This document shows, piece by piece, positions 33,962 through 46,607 of a stretch of DNA of 64,000 nt. Position 1 is the first letter of the stretch; every line of letters begins with the position of its first letter. A program made the translations under genes and the position numbers. The DNA lies in contig JAFGCJ010000002.1 in the NCBI GenBank assembly GCA_016932785.1, positions 273,777 through 337,776 on the forward strand, given 5' to 3'. The DNA is from Candidatus Dojkabacteria bacterium (GTDB lineage: Bacteria; Patescibacteriota; Dojkabacteria; SC72; JAFGCJ01). The notes below the pieces were generated by a model. That model was not told the origin of the DNA and made no database searches. It saw nothing but the letters and a program-made list of their open reading frames with translations.

Positions 33962-35476
33962 ATGAACAACCACAAAAAAATCAAAAACAAACTAGACAAA
34001 CTTGGATTTAAGTACCAGACTATTGACCTTGCCACAGAGTCTTTGGATCTCGACGAACAGGTCCGCGCAGGGAATCTTAAATACAGCGAATGTGTTGGAA
34101 CACTTCTAATCAAAGACCAACGGGGTAATTACTATGCTTTCCTTAGAAGAGACGACAGAAAAATGGATGCCGAAAAGGTGAAAACGATTATTGGAAGCGA
34201 CTCATTTGATTTCTGTGATGACAAAGACCTTGAAAAAATAGGATTCGAATCAGGACTTCTTTCTCCAGTACTACTAAACGACGGCAAAAAACCAATCAAA
34301 GTATTTGTAGATCAAAATATCAAAAAGATGAAAGTCGTTAACTGTGGACCGGCAATTCCCGGTGCAACCCTCCGTCTCGATAAAGACGATCTCCTCAAGG
34401 CAGTTGGAGAATATGAATTTATAGATTTTACACAGCCTAACCCCCAGAGATCTGATGATCTTTTCTCCTCTGATAAGGTTGTTTACACCGCTGATACCCC
34501 AACAGGTCAGATGCATATCGGACATTACGTTGGAACACTAGAAAATCGGGTTAAGCTCCAAGATAGATTCAACTGTTTTTTCGGACTTGCCAACTATCAC
34601 TCATTTTCATATATGCAAAAAGGTGAGGGCCTCTATAAGAATCCAGATTTTATTCACGAAGTGACTCTACAGGTTGCCATGGATAATCTAGCGGTAGGAA
34701 TAAACCCCGAAAAGTGTACCTACTATATCGAATCAGATGTTCCTGAGACATGTGAACTTGCAATGCTCTTCAGCATGCTGGTATCACACAACCGCGCCCT
34801 AAGAAATCCGACCATTAAGGACGAAATTAAACTAAAAGGCATGGGAAATCAGTTCTCACTTGGATTCATCAACTATCCAATGCTCCAAGCAGCGGATATC
34901 CTTATATTTAAAGCCGAATTAATTCCTGTCGGCAAAGACCAGTTGCCCCATATTGAGCAATCGAGAGAAATAGCCCGAGACTTTAACGAGCTATATGGTG
35001 AGACATTCCCAATTCCAGAGGGTCTTGTAGGAAAGGTCGGAATGCTTCCAGGACTTGATAACAAAAAAATGAGCAAAAGTCTCGGAAATGCTATCGTATT
35101 CACTGATTCCGACGAAGAAATCAAAAAGAAAATAATGAGCATGTACACCGATCCTAACAGGATACATCCGACTGATCCTGGCAAGGTAAAAGACAACCCC
35201 GTATTTATATACCATGAAGCTTTCAATCCAGATAAGGAAGAAATTGAAGATTTGAAGGAACGCTATGAAACCGGAAAAGTCGGCGATGTGGAGGTAAAGG
35301 AGAAACTGGCAAATGCTATGATTAATTTCATCGCTCCAATTCGAGAAAGAAGAAAGAAATACGAGGATAATCCTGACCTTCTAAGAGAAATTCTATCAGA
35401 AGGCGGCAAAAAAGCTAGAAAAGAAGCAAAGAAAACCATGTCCGAAGTCAGAGAAAAGATGAAACTGGACTTCTAG
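33962..35476 (+). CDS. trpS: tryptophan--tRNA ligase with N-terminal YbaK/ProX-like (tRNA_edit-type) domain
   Basis: Residues ~1-165 follow the YbaK pattern (..CVGTLLIKD..YYAFLRRDDRKMD..GFESGLLSPVLL..VNCGPAIPGATLRL). The class Ic core has TPTGQMHIGHYVG (HIGH), PMLQAADIL, GKDQLPHIEQSREIARDFN and KKMSKS. The upstream T-box has a UGG specifier. Confidence 0.85.
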   Translation: MNNHKKIKNKLDKLGFKYQTIDLATESLDLDEQVRAGNLKYSECVGTLLIKDQRGNYYAFLRRDDRKMDAEKVKTIIGSDSFDFCDDKDLEKIGFESGLLSPVLLNDGKKPIKVFVDQNIKKMKVVNCGPAIPGATLRLDKDDLLKAVGEYEFIDFTQPNPQRSDDLFSSDKVVYTADTPTGQMHIGHYVGTLENRVKLQDRFNCFFGLANYHSFSYMQKGEGLYKNPDFIHEVTLQVAMDNLAVGINPEKCTYYIESDVPETCELAMLFSMLVSHNRALRNPTIKDEIKLKGMGNQFSLGFINYPMLQAADILIFKAELIPVGKDQLPHIEQSREIARDFNELYGETFPIPEGLVGKVGMLPGLDNKKMSKSLGNAIVFTDSDEEIKKKIMSMYTDPNRIHPTDPGKVKDNPVFIYHEAFNPDKEEIEDLKERYETGKVGDVEVKEKLANAMINFIAPIRERRKKYEDNPDLLREILSEGGKKARKEAKKTMSEVREKMKLDF

Positions 35477-35983: not shown

Positions 35984-38173
35984 TTACAGATATTTCAGAA
36001 TTTTAGCCTTGTCCATGTCAACAAACTCAACATTATCCTTATCTCTCTTTTTCATCTCAACCTTATCTTCCTTAAGAGTTTTTTCACTGATAACTATTCT
36101 TAATGGAATACCAATCAAATCAGCATCAGCAAATTTCACTCCTGGTGAAACGTCCGACCTGTCATCCCAAAGAATTTCAACCCCAGATTCTGAAAGATCG
36201 TTATATAGTTTTTCTGATTCTTTTGTGATCTTCTTACCATCGCCAATAGAAACAAGAATCACAGAGAACGGAGCAATGCTCCTGGGCCACACTATTCCGT
36301 TCTCATCGTGATGCATTTCAACAACTGAAGCCATAGCACGTCCAACGCCAATCCCATAGGCTCCCATCCACATAGGTTTTTCCTTCCCATCCTTATCAAC
36401 AAAATAAGCCTTGTGAGGATTAGTGTAATAATGATCATATTTAAAGATATGTCCAACCTCAATTGACTTCTTCTCCTTTAAATAACCGTCCTTACATTTG
36501 GGACACTTCGCACCATCGTATGCCGAGGCAATATCGTCTATCTTTGAAACTTTGAAATCACGACCATAATTAACATTGAATGAATCTGTTGTCTTTTCTT
36601 TAAGTCCTCCAATGAGGTTTTTAGACATTTTTAGTGCAATATCTCCGACATAAATCACATTATCCCTACCCTCATCATGACCCCACGAGTGAACCCACCC
36701 ACTCTTTGTACCAATACTCGTAAGGTCCTCCTCATCAGCATAGTCAAGAACATCAATATCGTCGAACAGATTGGCAATCTTTGTAGCGTTAGCCTCGAGA
36801 TCTCCTCGTACAACGGCAATTATCAATCGCCCCTTTTTGTCTTTGAAAACAACATTCTTAAGAAAATGGGACTTTGGCTTCTTATAATGCTCCACATTTT
36901 CATCCATGGTACATACCCACTCAGGCTGCTCAATAATCTCAAAAGGTTTTTCTTCTTCATCTATGTTTACAGAATCCCTCACAAATTCTGCCTTCTCGAC
37001 GTTTGCTTTATAGCCACACCGGTCACACATGACAATCTTATCTCCTCCTGCACTAAACACCTTGTCCTCTCGAACATCTACGAAGTCTTTTACTTTGAGA
37101 TCCCGTCCAATATTCACATTCTTACGAAAGACTCTCTCCTTATGGGCACCGTCATAATAGTTCTTGTTATATTTAACAGACTCATCGATAATAAGCTCAA
37201 CTTTGCTATCCAGCCCTATCGGAGAAACATAACCAATAAACGATCCCAACTCATCAATCTCAGATTTTGTTGCAGGTCGTATAGTCTTGTACTTAAGCAG
37301 TCTTCGAAGCTTAATGAAGTCAATCCTGTAATCTCCACGTATCGTAATACATATGTACTTTTTCCCATCAACAACATAGACCATGTTCTTCAAAGTTTTT
37401 TCCGGATGTTGTGCATAGAATTTTAGGATCTTCTTATACTCCTTCTGGTTCTTCGACACATCCTCAACTTCCATTCGGAGTTCTTTCTCGTCTTCATCAA
37501 AATATAAATCCAATTCCTGAACTCTTTCAGGGGTAATTACCATAAATTCATGACTATAATCTCCTCCGAGCGCACCATTGTCGGCAATCACAGCCTCTGT
37601 CTTAAGCCCAACACGATTAAAAATCTTCTCGTAGGCCTTCCAGTATGCATCGTAGGTCTTCATAAAAGACTTTTCATCCCTCTCATAATTGTAAGCATCC
37701 TTCATCAAAAACTCTCGAACCCTTATTAGTCCTCCCCGGGGCCTCAACTCATCCCTGAACTTGGGAAGAAACTGATATACATTTATAGGAAGATCTTTAT
37801 AGCTCGGCTTTTCTGACTTTATAACTTCAGTCATAAGCGCTTCAGCTGTAGCACTCATTGCAAAGGTACGGCCAAAATGATCCTTAGCCACAATCATTTG
37901 TTCCCCAAATGCCTCATCACGGTTAGTAATTCTCCAAGGCTCAATAGGCTGCATTATAGGCAGTTCCATTCTCTGAGAACCAATGGCCTCCATCTCCTCA
38001 ACGATTATCTTAATAATCTTATCCTTAACTCGATAACCAAGCGGCATGAATGCATATCTCCCAGTAGCAACCTGCCGAATGAAACCTCCCCTATAAAGGA
38101 GTCTGTGACTTTCAGCCTGTGCATCAGATGGAACGGTCTTAGATGTTTTCAAAAAGTATTCAGTAAATTTCAT
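35984..38173 (-). CDS. proS: proline--tRNA ligase, bacterial type, with duplicated INS (YbaK-like) editing module
   Basis: Class II motifs (FRDELRPRGGLIRVREFLMKDAY; GAYGIGVGRAMASVVE) and a C-terminal anticodon-binding region. At 729 aa it is longer than the usual ~570 aa. It has two INS-like units (LKNMVYV..ITIRGDYRIDFIKL..YVSPIG..NVNIGRDLKV and LKNVVFK..AVVRGDLEANATKI..NVNYGRDFKV). Confidence 0.9.
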   Translation of the reverse strand: MKFTEYFLKTSKTVPSDAQAESHRLLYRGGFIRQVATGRYAFMPLGYRVKDKIIKIIVEEMEAIGSQRMELPIMQPIEPWRITNRDEAFGEQMIVAKDHFGRTFAMSATAEALMTEVIKSEKPSYKDLPINVYQFLPKFRDELRPRGGLIRVREFLMKDAYNYERDEKSFMKTYDAYWKAYEKIFNRVGLKTEAVIADNGALGGDYSHEFMVITPERVQELDLYFDEDEKELRMEVEDVSKNQKEYKKILKFYAQHPEKTLKNMVYVVDGKKYICITIRGDYRIDFIKLRRLLKYKTIRPATKSEIDELGSFIGYVSPIGLDSKVELIIDESVKYNKNYYDGAHKERVFRKNVNIGRDLKVKDFVDVREDKVFSAGGDKIVMCDRCGYKANVEKAEFVRDSVNIDEEEKPFEIIEQPEWVCTMDENVEHYKKPKSHFLKNVVFKDKKGRLIIAVVRGDLEANATKIANLFDDIDVLDYADEEDLTSIGTKSGWVHSWGHDEGRDNVIYVGDIALKMSKNLIGGLKEKTTDSFNVNYGRDFKVSKIDDIASAYDGAKCPKCKDGYLKEKKSIEVGHIFKYDHYYTNPHKAYFVDKDGKEKPMWMGAYGIGVGRAMASVVEMHHDENGIVWPRSIAPFSVILVSIGDGKKITKESEKLYNDLSESGVEILWDDRSDVSPGVKFADADLIGIPLRIVISEKTLKEDKVEMKKRDKDNVEFVDMDKAKILKYL

Positions 38174-38544: not shown

Positions 38545-39207
38545 TTATTTGTAAAAAGCCATATTCATAAAGGTCTGCTCTGTCACTACGGCAAAATCAG
38601 GAGCATATTTTGGACGAACATGATCTGAAAATAAAACTTTATTTGGATCCCTGCGCACTACCTGATTCTGACCGGAAAATAGAAAATATTGAGGGCTCCC
38701 TGCAACACAACCAAGATCAGTCCAAATAAATTGAGAAGACGCATGTCCTCTTACTGAATCCCAGCTTTTACGAGAAAAGGTAAAGGCGGCTGAGGCAATT
38801 ACTCTTGAAATCATCCAGAAATTTGACTGGCCCATTTCCATAATCTTAAACTTTGCATTCTGACCAGGCCATCTATTTGACGAGATAATTTTAAATAGAT
38901 CAGGACAACCTGTTATAGCAGTAATTTCATGAACCGAAGCAAAGGCCGCTATTGGAATATTACTATCGGGTTCAGGCATACAAGACAGAAATTGTACATA
39001 CTTAGCATTTTCAAGAACGGGGTCACTTGCAGGACCACCATCCCACGCAACATCAATTCTTTCCCAATCCATTTTGCTGCACCAACTAATTACACCCCCT
39101 AATTCTTCAAAAACCCTTTCAGGATCTTCAAACGGGTTGCTCCAAACAAGACCCAACACAGGATCTTCACCTCTTTCCTGGATTTGATTAAGTTGCTCTG
39201 ACATCAC
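38545..39207 (-). CDS. hypothetical protein
   Basis: 220-aa ORF between tyrS and the proS leader. No family motif recognised. Confidence 0.55.
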   Translation of the reverse strand: MMSEQLNQIQERGEDPVLGLVWSNPFEDPERVFEELGGVISWCSKMDWERIDVAWDGGPASDPVLENAKYVQFLSCMPEPDSNIPIAAFASVHEITAITGCPDLFKIISSNRWPGQNAKFKIMEMGQSNFWMISRVIASAAFTFSRKSWDSVRGHASSQFIWTDLGCVAGSPQYFLFSGQNQVVRRDPNKVLFSDHVRPKYAPDFAVVTEQTFMNMAFYK

Positions 39208-39281: not shown

Positions 39282-40907
39282 CTATCTCATTAGGTTCTCC
39301 AGACGTGTAATCAAATCCGCCATACTCTTAGGTTCAAAATGCCTTCTGGCGGGTTCCAAAATCTTTACTACTGCTTCAGATACAGCTGTCTTTAGATCCA
39401 ACGGATGAAGCTTGCCTTCCTCAAACAGATTAAACATTTCCTGCTCAGATTCAAAATTGATATCTCCTCCATGTTTCTTTTCTCTTTTGACCTCTAGCTT
39501 TCCTAAAATAGGAAAAACCAAGTGCTTCGCCCAATCTAAAACGGGATTAAACTCAATCTCCCTTTCAGGACAGAAAGCTCCATTTATCTTCCTTCGTATC
39601 TCATCGACACTGTCATGGATAAACACACACGTATCAGGCTTAGATTTACTCATTTTCATCTCTGACCAAAGTTCTCTAAGCCTTGCCTTATCCTTAATCG
39701 GCCAAACTGGCGGCTTACCAAGACCAAGAATTAGGTGGTGATGAATTGCAACAGGCTTTATCTTATTCTTGCTTTCGTCCAATAATGGAGAGACCTCGAG
39801 TTTTTCAGCAACTTCGCGAGCTATAACATGTGCCTTCCTCTGATCCATACCCCCATGAGCAATATTTACACCAATATTAAAAATATCATTAACCTGCATC
39901 GGCGGATATACAAGCCAGGCAAAGCATTGATTCTCTCCCTCACGCCTACCCATAATCGTGGAACTCTTTACTACACGAGCCAGAGTCAGATTCTTGGAGA
40001 CATCAATAAACGATTGCCAGTACTTATCATTATTGTGATAAAACTCAGATCCAAGGATAAAATTCACTTTCAACGGATCAGCCCCGGCACACTTCAACGA
40101 TGCAATTAATGCTTCCTTAAAATATCCCACTGCAACTTCAGTTATCGTCTCAAGATCTCCATTTAGCTTTCCATTTATCCAGGCATGCCAATCTGCAAGC
40201 AAGATATTGCACTCAACACCGGCCTTGAGTAGATCCTTGATTTTAAGAGCAGTCATAAGTCCGCTCCCAATATGGAGTTTACCGGAAATTTCAAAACCAA
40301 TATAATGGCGAAGCTTAGTTTCTCCAACTATCAGCGATTCCAGATCCTTCTCCGTAAGACACTCTTCAAGATTTCCCGTTATTAAACTTTTCTTCTTTTC
40401 TTGGCTGAGAGAAAGACTCATCTCTATTTTCTCCTTATTACTTAATTTATCGGCCAATTGGGTCACTCTAACATTATGCAATTTACTCAGTGCTTCTTCA
40501 ACACTAAGGTTTATACCCTTAGCCAAATCCCCGGCTCCCATACTCCATCTATCCATATCCGCGGCTTCTTTATCAACCAATATTGGGATGTCAAGCAGGA
40601 AAGGATTTAAACACCCTGGCCGAAACTTAAAATTTTCCGCTAATGCTTGTTCGTCCAGAATATCCCATTTCCCGATGTTTTTCCTCAGAAGCTTCTGATC
40701 AATGCGTTGATCCCCCTTAAGCAGAACAGCAAAAAAGCCCTCAGATGTTTTCACAACTAAAGTCTTTATTGCAATTTGCGGATCATAATTCTTGTCCACT
40801 GAAGAATCGACCTTTCGAGCAGATATGGCCCTATCCGTAAAAGTAATTTCTTCAAAGTTCAGTCCTATTTTCTTCAATTTTCTGGCAACAGAATCAAATG
40901 TATGCAT
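39282..40907 (-). CDS. tyrS: tyrosine--tRNA ligase, archaeal/eukaryotic type, with N-terminal YbaK/ProX-like domain
   Basis: The core closely parallels M. jannaschii TyrRS from memory: HYIGFEISGKLHIGSG, LLADWHAWIN, YPPMQVNDIFNIGVNIAHGGMDQRKAHVIARE, KMSKSKPDTCVFIHDS and HGGDINFESEQEMFNLFEEGKLHPLDLKTAVSEAVVKILEPARR. The N-terminal ~160 aa follow the YbaK pattern (..IAIKTLVVK..FFAVLLKGDQRID..FRPGCLNPFLL..SMGAGDLAKGINLS). Confidence 0.88.
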   Translation of the reverse strand: MHTFDSVARKLKKIGLNFEEITFTDRAISARKVDSSVDKNYDPQIAIKTLVVKTSEGFFAVLLKGDQRIDQKLLRKNIGKWDILDEQALAENFKFRPGCLNPFLLDIPILVDKEAADMDRWSMGAGDLAKGINLSVEEALSKLHNVRVTQLADKLSNKEKIEMSLSLSQEKKKSLITGNLEECLTEKDLESLIVGETKLRHYIGFEISGKLHIGSGLMTALKIKDLLKAGVECNILLADWHAWINGKLNGDLETITEVAVGYFKEALIASLKCAGADPLKVNFILGSEFYHNNDKYWQSFIDVSKNLTLARVVKSSTIMGRREGENQCFAWLVYPPMQVNDIFNIGVNIAHGGMDQRKAHVIAREVAEKLEVSPLLDESKNKIKPVAIHHHLILGLGKPPVWPIKDKARLRELWSEMKMSKSKPDTCVFIHDSVDEIRRKINGAFCPEREIEFNPVLDWAKHLVFPILGKLEVKREKKHGGDINFESEQEMFNLFEEGKLHPLDLKTAVSEAVVKILEPARRHFEPKSMADLITRLENLMR

Positions 40908-40931
40908 GTATATAGAATAACAAAATAAACA

Positions 40932-41014
40932 TCCAGGGGGCAGGATTCGAACCTGCGAAGCCTTTCAGCGTTGGATTTACAGTCCAATGCATTTGACCAC
41001 TCTGCCACCCCTGG
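40932..41014 (-). tRNA. tRNA-Tyr (anticodon GUA), class II with long variable arm, no encoded CCA
   Basis: Minus strand: CCAGGGG-UG-GCA(GAGUGGUCAAA)UGC-A-UUGGA(CUGUAAA)UCCAA-CGCUGAAAGGCUUC-GCAGG(UUCGAAU)CCUGC-CCCCUGG-A. It has a 7-bp acceptor stem, the T-loop consensus and discriminator A. It ends 24 nt upstream of the tyrS ATG. Confidence 0.92.
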
Positions 41015-41018
41015 TATG

Positions 41019-41045
41019 ATGCCTGGCTTCGGCGATGCCTGACAT
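41019..41045. repeat. REP-derived remnant (two direct copies of the REP right arm) abutting the tRNA-Tyr 5' end
   Basis: ATGCCTGgcttcggcgATGCCTGACAT. The second copy matches the right arm of the REP at 46138-46150 except for one base. Confidence 0.55.
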
Positions 41046-41376
41046 ATATAATCGAGACATAGCTCACAACCACTGGCCTTTACTTCATGAAGATGGAGGA
41101 AAAGGGTAAAACCCAAATGGCTGTGAGCTTTTTTATTGGAAGTAGACCTGGATCAAACGAGTGCCAAAGGCTAGCCTCTTTCCAGGTCTTTGGAGATCAC
41201 AATATTTGTTTAGCACAAGAGTGCTAACTAGTTGTAATCACCGCGATACACTACTATCACCTCCTCTATAAAGAACAGCGGTTATTTTAGGCCTTAATTC
41301 CAGATAATACTCCTGGTCGGCCACCGCTCAATAAATCCGTACAAAATTAACTTTTCATTAAGCGAAAGCCCACCGG

Positions 41377-41400
41377 TGCCAGGCATAGCCTATGCCAGCA
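41377..41400. repeat. REP-like palindrome (degenerate copy, opposite orientation)
   Basis: TGCCAGGCATAG-C-CTATGCCAGCA has the same core as the REPs flanking the RAYT gene. It carries one A.A mismatch at the variable arm position. Confidence 0.65.
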
Positions 41401-41475
41401 TATTCAATTCTGCGTCCATTCGGCATAACACAAATCTGCTCTTTAAGTATTTTTTGCTTTTAGCAGCGGTTTTGC

Positions 41476-41838
41476 CAAATAAAAACGCCTTTACACAAAC
41501 CCGATCAGCTCGATCAGATTTATGCAAAGGCGTTCAGTAAACGCGGTACCACTTTGCTTTAGTCTATTGTCTTTTAACAATAAAAAAACACCACGGCGGG
41601 TGTTCGAAGTCAAGACAATAAACTCTTGTCCGGAGTGCTCTGACTTCTTTGCCGACACACTCTTTTCGCTGTCACGGGCGAAACCCGTCAATCTTTTAAC
41701 TGTAATAGTACAGTTTTTTGAGATGAAGCTCAGGAGGGTAATTCTGAAGTTTACTTGCGAAAGCCTTGCTCCAACCGGCTTTTCTCATTTGCCACAGAAA
41801 ACTTCTTACTATTTCTCCGTCAACGCTTTTAAATGAAC
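41476..41838 (-). promoter_or_regulatory. T-box riboswitch leader (Tyr specifier, full-length Stem I) with intrinsic terminator
   Basis: Read on the minus strand: GCGUUGACGGAG-AAAUAGUA-[GAAGUUU..distal..AAACUUC]-AGAAU-UAC-C-CUCCUGAGC (UAC = 41740-41738). The T-box core is AAAGCAAAGUGGUACCGCG (41560-41541). The antiterminator is GCAAAG / bulge UGGUACC / GCGUU-UACUG-AACGC / CUUUGC (41557-41524). The terminator is AACGCCUUUGCA..UGUAAAGGCGUU plus UUUUUAUUU (41534-41476). Confidence 0.85.
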
Positions 41839-41845
41839 TAATTAC

Positions 41846-41874
41846 ATTATATCATAATTTTGTTTTTTTATCAA
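41846..41874 (-). promoter_or_regulatory. near-consensus sigma70-type promoter of the Tyr T-box leader
   Basis: Minus strand TTGATA (41874-41869), N17, TATAAT (41851-41846). Confidence 0.7.
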
Positions 41875-42007
41875 GGTTTTTATGCATTAAAACCCCATAA
41901 ACAAAGACAAATACTTAAAATTGACCCCAATCGAAAACACAAATATAATCGAAACATGGACTCAGTCTTTTTCAGATTTCACTACCTAATTTCATCTCTC
42001 CTCATAT

Positions 42008-46123: not shown

Positions 46124-46150
46124 TGTCAGGCATAGGCTATGCCTGACATA
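46124..46150. repeat. REP palindrome flanking the RAYT gene (3' side)
   Basis: ATGTCAGGCATAG-G-CTATGCCTGACAT has 13-nt perfect arms around a single central nt. It overlaps the last codons and stop of the RAYT ORF. Confidence 0.8.
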
Positions 46151-46607
46151 GAGTCTTTGTAAAATGAATGTATCGTGGATTAATGTATAACCACTTGTAA
46201 AAGGAAGGGTCGTATACATACCCTTCCTTGACCGGATTTCTCTCGATATACCTGATCAGCCTACGTAAACTGCTCTTTGTGAAAACAGATTTTGCTTGAT
46301 AACGCCCCTGAAAAGTATGCCCCACAAGCCTATATTTCAAATTGAAATATTTCGAATATGATGTTAAAAGTCTCTGCATAAGAATTGATATCTCATCGCC
46401 AAAACCCTGCCTAACAACCAAATGAAAATGATTATCCATAAGACAATATCCTATTAGCTCTATACCACAATCAAAGACAGTCCTCTTCAATTTACTAATA
46501 AAGAATAACCGGTCTATTCTCGACCGAAAAATCCTTTTTTTTCTATTACCACGATTGTATACATGATATATAACACCAGATTTATAGTCCCTCTTAACTC
46601 TATTCAT
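46137..46607 (-). mobile_element. REP-associated tyrosine transposase (RAYT; IS200/IS605 Y1 transposase-like)
   Basis: 156 aa. VIYHVYNRGN, the HUH motif LMDNHFHLVV, GHTFQGRYQAK and the catalytic-Tyr region LIRYIERNPVKEG. It is flanked on both sides by cognate palindromes. Confidence 0.85.

Follow-up and report, generated by a model that had tools for sequence, protein, structure and literature searches.

Tyrosyl-tRNA synthetase (TyrRS) is a textbook case of a synthetase without need of an editing domain. In Dojkabacteria (WS6) and other lineages in the candidate phyla radiation (CPR) the enzyme is of an archaeal type derived from DPANN, and an archaeal-type TyrRS in a bacterium has thus been known since 2017 (Mukai et al. 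2017, Life 7:8; PMC5370408). The hybrid tRNATyr of Dojkabacteria and other phyla, which has C1-G72 and keeps a bacterial variable arm (V-arm), and N-terminal oligonucleotide/oligosaccharide-binding (OB)-fold fusions on the synthetase are known from the same source (PMC5370408). The INS superfamily comprises the INS domain of prolyl-tRNA synthetase (ProRS) and eight families of single-domain trans-editing proteins; exceptions to the single-domain layout are the fusions of ProXp-ala with ProRS that some eukaryotes have and a C-terminal extension in plants (PMC11295145). Here we describe a gene in which an archaeal-type TyrRS is preceded by an N-terminal domain that profile and predicted fold assign to the INS superfamily. 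It lies in a 64,000-nt stretch of DNA from Candidatus Dojkabacteria bacterium (assembly GCA_016932785.1, contig JAFGCJ010000002.1, positions 273,777 to 337,776), called the window below. Residues 1-160 of the fused protein correspond exactly to window coordinates 40428-40907, where the original prediction, made from the letters of the sequence, placed a YbaK-like domain with its catalytic lysine.

The reading frame of the fused gene is continuous from end to end over 541 codons. Two Pfam families match the product. PF04073 (tRNA_edit) covers residues 40-137 with 60.8 bits against a cut-off of 25.5 (E 1.7e-16), and residues 197-518 match PF00579, the family of the class Ic synthetase core. The profile check thus finds the YbaK-superfamily similarity that had been read from the motifs. 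NCBI holds an identical protein (P0001) under the label 'tyrosine--tRNA ligase [Candidatus Dojkabacteria bacterium]', and the databases label the fused proteins plainly 'tyrosine--tRNA ligase'. GC content is about 40% and uniform over the junction of N-domain and core, with no seam and no foreign island. The AlphaFold 2 (AF2) model of the whole fused protein has a mean predicted local distance difference test (pLDDT) score of 86.5. At least 11 independent fused homologues are found on other CPR contigs, with N-domain identities of 37-51%. The two-domain architecture is present on independent contigs in P0002, P0003, P0004, P0006, P0009, P0010, P0031, L017, L020/L021 and P0219. A search with the full-length query gives seven more proteins with PF04073 and PF00579 at overall identities of 47-57%, while L017 (Ca. 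Shapirobacteria) and L020/L021 were added by genome and metagenome scans. These locus scans recovered only six genome loci and four metagenome loci, so that the tally of fused and free-standing forms is of limited size and skewed by the pattern used in the search. The unbroken frame and the same architecture on independent contigs exclude chance, mis-assembly and a frameshift, and the fusion is a genuine gene, as predicted. An in-frame methionine, M164 (40416-40418, minus strand; context …KIEMSLSLSQEKKKSLITGNLEE), lies in the linker at about the position where unfused TyrRS homologues start. It is not kept among fused homologues and may be either a remnant of the former start codon or a site of internal initiation.

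The N-domain contains the motifs AIKTLVVK (with Lys48), PGCLNP and SMGAGD. With the single N-domain sequence phmmer found nothing in the PDB, and relatives surfaced only with a profile built from eight N-domains. This profile matches A. pernix APE2540 (E 2e-9), E. coli and H. influenzae YbaK (1.5e-8 and 1e-7) and ProRS INS (about 1e-5), and T. thermophilus ProX is also matched. The AF2 model of the N-domain has a pLDDT of 92.5. In Foldseek it superposes on T. thermophilus ProX (2z0k/2cx5) with a template modelling (TM) score of 0.84, on APE2540 (1wdv) with 0.80-0.84 and on YbaK (1dbx) with 0.79-0.81, each with a probability of 1.00 and at only 15-21% sequence identity. Lys48 aligns with K46 of H. 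influenzae YbaK and the GCLNP stretch with its GGISP loop, so that the catalytic lysine is indeed retained. Lys48, Gly98 and Pro102 are invariant in about 55 TyrRS-linked or free-standing members of the clade to which the domain belongs. A catalytic lysine and a GxxxP loop are used by all characterised INS-superfamily deacylases (PMC11286415). Profile, modelled fold and the Lys/GxxxP residues together place the N-domain in the INS superfamily, and deacylase activity is predicted for it.

More specific assignments within the superfamily were tried and rejected. For YbaK sensu stricto, the TIGR00011 model gives 25.3 bits against a cut-off of 153.25 and NF007951 is not reported; the domain is fused to a TyrRS rather than free-standing, and the ProRS of the window has an INS domain of its own. 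For ProXp-ala, the profile reaches only E 0.41 to C. crescentus 5vxb and 0.44 to 1vjf, and in the structural comparison ProXp-ala 9bu5 matches more weakly than any other INS member (E 4.7e-4). ProXp-ST1 (E. coli YeaK) is matched with an hhalign probability of 94% (E 1e-7, 19% identity), which is similarity at the superfamily level only. ProXp-7 includes eukaryotic MCP3 (PMC11286415). The clade of the N-domain could be ProXp-8 or ProXp-9, which like ProXp-7 are uncharacterised INS clusters, or none of these. The term YbaK-like therefore holds for the superfamily but not for YbaK proper, and the domain belongs to a separate, CPR-specific clade.

The synthetase part matches NF006330, the NCBIfam equivalog model of archaeal-type TyrRS, with 404 bits against a cut-off of 220, and stays below the cut-off of TIGR00234, the bacterial tyrS model. 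Among solved structures P. horikoshii TyrRS (2cyc) matches best (E 1.6e-122), with 52% identity and a TM score of 0.88 in the structural alignment, and N. equitans TyrRS (7fg6) matches the core with E 7e-93. M. jannaschii TyrRS is farther from the core, with about 33-34% identity. The nearest solved relatives are thus archaeal, and these sequence comparisons put the core nearest the Pyrococcus/DPANN subgroup, not M. jannaschii; of the M. jannaschii-type core that had been proposed, the archaeal type stands and the subgroup does not. The HIGH-like motif HIGS (212-215) and KMSKS (418-422) are invariant among homologues. So are the two residues of the tyrosine pocket, Y202 in HYIGFE and D341 in QVNDIF, both of which had been picked out beforehand. 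R357 and K358 are invariant as well, and the offset to 1j1u (query 175-370 on chain 6-187) puts them at Arg174 and Lys175 of M. jannaschii TyrRS. In the M. jannaschii enzyme these residues read C1-G72 (PMC1934993). There is no bacterial S4-like C-terminal domain, and the end of the protein consists of the anticodon-binding helices. Judged from its sequence, the synthetase part looks fully functional; since its active-site residues are those of a canonical TyrRS, it is expected to be active and to discriminate against Phe.

A tRNA-Tyr gene was located by ARAGORN upstream of the start codon, at the predicted distance of 24 nt. It has C1-G72 and A73, and its long variable arm is formed by a 3-bp stem and a GAAA loop; CCA is not encoded. 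The acceptor end is the archaeal/eukaryal tyrosine identity set and the variable arm is bacterial, which makes this a hybrid tRNA. The original description as a bacterial-type class II tRNA-Tyr is correct for the long variable arm and has to be given up for the acceptor end. With C1-G72, A73, a V-arm and a bacterial host, the tRNA is a member of the CPR archaeal-identity tRNATyr group. A spacer of 23-24 nt between tRNA and fused gene is also found in L004 and L005/L006, and the same tRNA adjoins unfused close relatives in L007 and L008. The tRNA is the sole Rfam match in the region. Between 39000 and 41500 there are 10 promoter-like sites where 5.5 are expected, none of them convincing directly upstream of the tRNA. 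The coordinates of all features are summarized in the table.

Features of the fused TyrRS gene and its tRNA in the window
Feature	Coordinates	Strand	Basis
Complete fused gene, 541 aa + stop	39282..40907	(-)	ORF (open reading frame); INS-superfamily domain + linker helix + archaeal-type TyrRS
INS-superfamily (YbaK/ProX-like) domain, residues 1-155, 'clade T'	40443..40907	(-)	PF04073, profile, AF2/Foldseek
Lys48 codon, counterpart of H. influenzae YbaK K46	40764..40766	(-)	Profile alignment; codon read from sequence
G98-C-L-N-P102, GxxxP loop	40602..40616	(-)	Aligned with YbaK GGISP
Predicted long α-helix, residues 157-177, linker from N-domain to core	40377..40439	(-)	DSSP on AF2 model, pLDDT 67-85
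Archaeal-type TyrRS core, residues 178-541	39285..40376	(-)	NF006330, PDB matches, alignment of homologues
Spacer between tRNA-Tyr and ATG, 24 nt, no obvious Shine-Dalgarno	40908..40931	(-)	Sequence
tRNA-Tyr(GTA), 83 nt	40932..41014	(-)	ARAGORN; Rfam RF00005 63.9 bits

Three further observations concern tRNA-Tyr genes and their surroundings. Neither an ORF of at least 120 aa nor an Rfam match is present in the stretch of about 1 kb upstream of the window tRNA (41015-42007), where one weak terminator-like site and a few promoter-like sites lie. At the Ca. Shapirobacteria locus with its fused archaeal-type TyrRS, the nearby tRNA-Tyr(GTA) (L017 2553-2625) is 73 nt long, is without a variable arm and, in a provisional register, apparently begins with A1-U72 and not C1-G72. 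The public gene call of P0003 (L004 3001-3093) begins inside the upstream tRNA-Tyr, and the initial 31 residues of the called protein derive from translation of the tRNA. Its true start probably lies 24 nt past the tRNA, at the Met of MDTDF.

Profile searches of 1.8 billion representative proteins and then of a 5.8-billion-protein set show that the N-domain belongs to a tight, CPR-specific clade, which is termed clade T here and has the signature FTDxA[IV]SARxxDTSxDxNY[DN]P-xx-[AS]IKTL, then PG[TCG][IV]CP[LF], then WSMGAG. Members match each other with E 1e-43 to 1e-58, whereas characterised families are reached only at E 1e-7 to 1e-9 and 15-21% identity. About 30 members are free-standing proteins of about 155 aa from CPR such as Roizmanbacteria, whose identity with the domain of the window protein is 43-53% (E 1e-48 to 1e-58); JGI labels these relatives 'prolyl-tRNA editing enzyme YbaK/EbsC'. 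Free-standing homologues of this size are expected of a trans-editing factor that has repeatedly been captured by its partner.

Clade T is joined to three kinds of TyrRS core: the Pyrococcus/DPANN-like core of the window; an archaeal/eukaryal-type core 39% identical to it (L020/L021, with 'YDGFEPSGQ'; NF006330 363 bits); and a bacterial-type TyrRS with an S4 domain (L013/L019, P0121, P0124, P0125), which TIGR00234 matches end to end with 339 bits. Archaeal-type TyrRS are joined to two further INS clades as well. The core of P0003 is that of the closest fused relative of the window protein (69% identity), yet its N-domain is only 24% identical, is from another INS clade and clusters with free-standing 'YbaK/EbsC' proteins of Shapirobacteria. 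The more YbaK-like N-domain of P0219, an archaeal-type TyrRS, represents a third INS clade. When the cores are arranged in a neighbour-joining tree, the fused proteins stand at no fewer than five separate places among unfused ones, a scatter which gives the pattern of repeated capture or swapping and resembles what was noted for B2-TyrRS (PMC5370408); such trees have no support values and were used only alongside pairwise identities, which agree. In bacterial-type TyrRS of about 820 aa (L013 216-2672, the same ORF in L019, and P0121), a clade-T domain is accompanied by a B3_4 domain, the two standing in opposite orders in L013/L019 and P0121. This B3_4 domain is most similar to CtdA (PDB 9f7e, E 9e-16). 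Two deacylase folds on one TyrRS are hard to read as anything other than proofreading. In a single case, the gene of a free-standing clade-T protein (P0275, L010 3315-4468) overlaps an upstream gene of the Asp/Glu-racemase family (PF01177) by 4 nt, a weak hint at a D-amino-acid link. Other INS-like fusions among P0188, P0221, P0265 and P0170 are tRNA_edit with GatB (631 aa), tRNA_edit with GatB_Yqey, and a Sir2 fragment with tRNA_edit.

The window holds three tRNA_edit-bearing synthetase genes within 7 kb. One of them (33962-35476, plus strand) encodes a bacterial-type tryptophanyl-tRNA synthetase (TrpRS) of 504 aa (TIGR00233 276 bits, cut-off 176.75), with an N-terminal PF04073 domain of its own at residues 34-146 (E 7.6e-19). 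This domain is a distant relative of clade T (hhalign 97.6%, 22% identity). The PF04073-TrpRS fusion is common in Dojkabacteria and other Patescibacteria, being present in 49 of the best 120 matches, some with two tandem copies. At the position of the catalytic lysine, 50 TrpRS N-domains have Ser (21), Pro (12), Gly (7), Ala (7), Thr (1) and Lys (2); the window TrpRS has Gly. The loss of this lysine in 48 of 50 TrpRS domains, compared with its invariance in clade T, suggests that its retention in clade T reflects selection and supports catalysis. NCBI annotates this TrpRS (P0310) as a protein of 382 aa that starts at about residue 123, so that the N-domain is cut off, while the long form is backed by 504-aa homologues at 61-77% identity. 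The ProRS gene (35984-38173, minus strand) lies 1.1 kb downstream of the fused TyrRS gene. It encodes a bacterial-type enzyme of 729 aa, about 160 aa over the usual length, whose INS region contains two PF04073 stretches. A 220-aa ORF (38545-39207, minus strand) without a Pfam match lies between this gene and that of TyrRS and shares their strand. An IS200-like (Y1_Tnp) transposase gene (46137-46607, minus strand) is 5 kb from the locus.

We favour, by a modest lean, the reading that the N-domain is a cis-acting aminoacyl-tRNA deacylase which proofreads the products of TyrRS. Its catalytic activity, action in cis and substrate are what we infer from the observed domain identity and fold, the conserved catalytic residues, the intact synthetase and the real, recurrent fusion. 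The archaeal-type, DPANN-derived TyrRS would charge the adjacent hybrid tRNA-Tyr. After aminoacylation the flexible 3' CCA end, with the tRNA held by the TyrRS dimer, would swing from the synthetic site to the N-domain, which helix 157-177 would tether near that site. Lys48 and the backbone of the G98-xxx-P102 loop would position the A76 ester for hydrolysis, as in INS-family enzymes, and the pocket of the N-domain would admit a non-cognate aminoacyl group and shut out L-Tyr. The domain's own tRNA specificity is probably slight, and specificity for tRNATyr would be gained from the TyrRS tether. YbaK acquires tRNAPro specificity in a comparable way, by association with ProRS (PMC11286415). The most plausible substrates are D-Tyr-tRNATyr or tRNATyr carrying ring-modified Tyr analogues; because the Tyr pocket is canonical, they are likely to be those that all TyrRS accept. 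D-Tyr is a classical TyrRS error, normally cleared by DTD, and TyrRS and TrpRS are the classical synthetases transferring D-amino acids. INS-like domains on both enzymes fit the D-amino-acid idea. As far as the sequence goes, clearing of mischarged or D-aminoacyl-tRNATyr by a cis deacylase, as originally suggested, is plausible, and the recurrent fusion and the invariant lysine strengthen the proposed function.

Several points speak against a cis-acting deacylase. The domain-to-domain geometry of the AF2 model is moderately confident (predicted TM score 0.66). The TyrRS cores closest to that of the window, P0005 and P0029 from other CPR (63-68% identity), are without any N-domain. The N-domains of TrpRS persist without the canonical catalytic lysine in 48 of 50 cases, and these Lys-less domains also weaken the D-amino-acid idea. 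TyrRS is classically non-editing owing to its strong discrimination against Phe. Finally, we know of no INS-family member that acts on D-aminoacyl-tRNA or on aromatic residues.

The N-domain might instead be a non-catalytic appendage for tRNA binding or scaffolding that raises affinity for the acceptor end of the hybrid tRNATyr or helps assembly and so offsets the missing bacterial S4-like domain, the binder of the variable arm. OB-fold (PheRS-B2) N-terminal fusions on CPR archaeal-type TyrRS are a parallel (PMC5370408), the same topology of a domain on a long helix is predicted here too, and the INS-like domains of TrpRS in the same phylum, conserved despite loss of the lysine in 48 of 50, indicate that a non-hydrolytic role exists. 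We nevertheless consider this unlikely: Lys48 and GxxxP are invariant in both TyrRS-linked and free-standing members, clade T also occurs free-standing, its presence on S4-bearing bacterial-type TyrRS means that it is no S4 substitute, and its co-fusion with a second deacylase-type domain points to editing. For the fusion itself to be an artefact, gene calling or a frameshift from sequencing or assembly would have had to merge two genes. The call of P0003 that extends into the upstream tRNA and the truncated TrpRS show that start calls in the region are unreliable, but this explanation has practically no chance given the uninterrupted frame, the same architecture in at least 11 independent assemblies at 37-51% N-domain identity, the uniform GC of about 40% at the junction and a linker confidently predicted as helix.

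Two further explanations involve proline. The domain could repair an identity clash between tRNATyr and tRNAPro, which share C1-G72 and A73 now that an archaeal identity set has entered a bacterium, by removing Tyr-tRNAPro or clearing tRNATyr mischarged by ProRS. C1-G72 and A73 are present in all tRNA-Tyr genes adjoining the TyrRS genes examined for this question, and the tRNA-Pro of L004 has them too. They are the strongest determinants for archaeal/eukaryal TyrRS (PMC1934993) and strong determinants of bacterial tRNAPro (PMC9976931), and G72/A73 is selected by ProXp-ala (PMC11295145); the ProRS gene is close by in the window. This explanation loses weight because clade T is also fused to bacterial-type TyrRS (L013, P0121, P0125), where no clash is expected. 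In addition, close CPR relatives with the same tRNA identity (L007, L008) are without the domain, clade T is very weakly similar to ProXp-ala (E 0.4), and the domain would have to spare Tyr-tRNATyr yet cut Tyr-tRNAPro although both share 1-72 and 73. We regard it as quite improbable. The other explanation takes the domain for an ordinary ProRS-directed YbaK/ProX trans-editing factor, acting on Cys- or Ala-tRNAPro, which is translationally fused by accident and has no link to tyrosine. YbaK and ProX-type proteins are indeed among the best solved-structure matches, ProRS is encoded nearby, and the free-standing relatives bear the YbaK/EbsC name in JGI. We give it very little credence, since the YbaK equivalog models fail widely (25 bits against 153), the ProRS of the window already has its own INS domain, and the TyrRS fusion recurs in different genomic contexts and with three TyrRS core types, which would be difficult to account for unless the function concerned tyrosine.

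The novelty of this locus lies in a deacylase fold that is itself known but belongs to a new family (clade T) and sits on a synthetase for which editing is not known. Full-text searches of the literature outside subscription-only papers found no account of TyrRS or TrpRS with an INS/YbaK-type domain, in keeping with the earlier remark that the architecture had not been described. Architecture and recurrence are solid and would surprise specialists; activity and substrate are what we infer. On a broader scale, and leaning slightly towards doubt, we tentatively propose that CPR have an unrecognised, dedicated proofreading of tRNATyr, in which clade T acts in trans (about 155 aa) and has been captured in cis by three lineages of TyrRS, in some cases alongside a CtdA-like B3/4 domain. 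Until now nearly all links of the INS superfamily have been to ProRS. Repeated fusion of a Lys-retaining INS-type domain to TyrRS, seen with three INS clades, with a bacterial-type and two archaeal-type cores and in some cases with a second deacylase fold, implies an unrecognised fidelity problem at tyrosine codons. Candidates are D-Tyr, Tyr analogues and identity clashes after lateral transfer. If active, the domain would be the first editing function on a class Ic synthetase, and clade T may stand in for DTD in dealing with D-Tyr or may clear a Tyr analogue of environmental origin. The single protein with its adjacent tRNA is a compact, directly testable system, which bears on the chiral and chemical cleanliness of translation in minimal genomes and may matter for engineering orthogonal archaeal TyrRS/tRNA pairs in bacteria.

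Among known systems, DTD strips D-Tyr, D-Trp and D-Asp from tRNA as a free-standing enzyme; it is a possible functional analogue, but its fold is unrelated to that of the window N-domain. CtdA is a free-standing canavanyl-tRNAArg deacylase. Its fold, that of PheRS B3-B4, is joined to TyrRS together with clade T in L013/L019 and P0121 and is absent from the window protein. The CPR archaeal-identity Tyr system shares with our locus the DPANN-like TyrRS and the C1-G72 tRNATyr with a V-arm (PMC5370408). The B2-TyrRS fusions of the same system also carry an extra N-terminal domain on a long helix, and domain swapping was noted there (PMC5370408). However, that domain is the OB-fold B2 of PheRS-beta, an RNA binder, whereas the window protein has an INS deacylase-type domain with catalytic residues; YbaK, ProX or an editing domain is nowhere mentioned in that paper (PMC5370408). 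With the INS domain of bacterial ProRS the N-domain shares fold, superfamily and Lys plus GxxxP, and action in cis, which is proposed here, is the mode of the ProRS domain. The latter hydrolyses Ala-tRNAPro and forms an insertion in a class II enzyme, located between its motifs 2 and 3, whereas the window domain is at the N-terminus of a class Ic enzyme, and sequence similarity between them is low (E 1e-5). The placement is that of protist ProXp-ala-ProRS (Plasmodium, Trypanosoma), in which an INS-superfamily domain is likewise N-terminal via a linker and is an active cis or near-cis deacylase (PMC11286415), although protist ProXp-ala and clade T are barely similar (E 0.4). YbaK, ProXp-x, ProXp-ST1/YeaK and APE2540-type proteins share with clade T the fold of about 155 residues, the lysine, the GxxxP loop and the SxGxG region. 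The free-standing clade-T proteins have the size and layout of these free-standing INS families and are set apart by their own signature upstream of the lysine.

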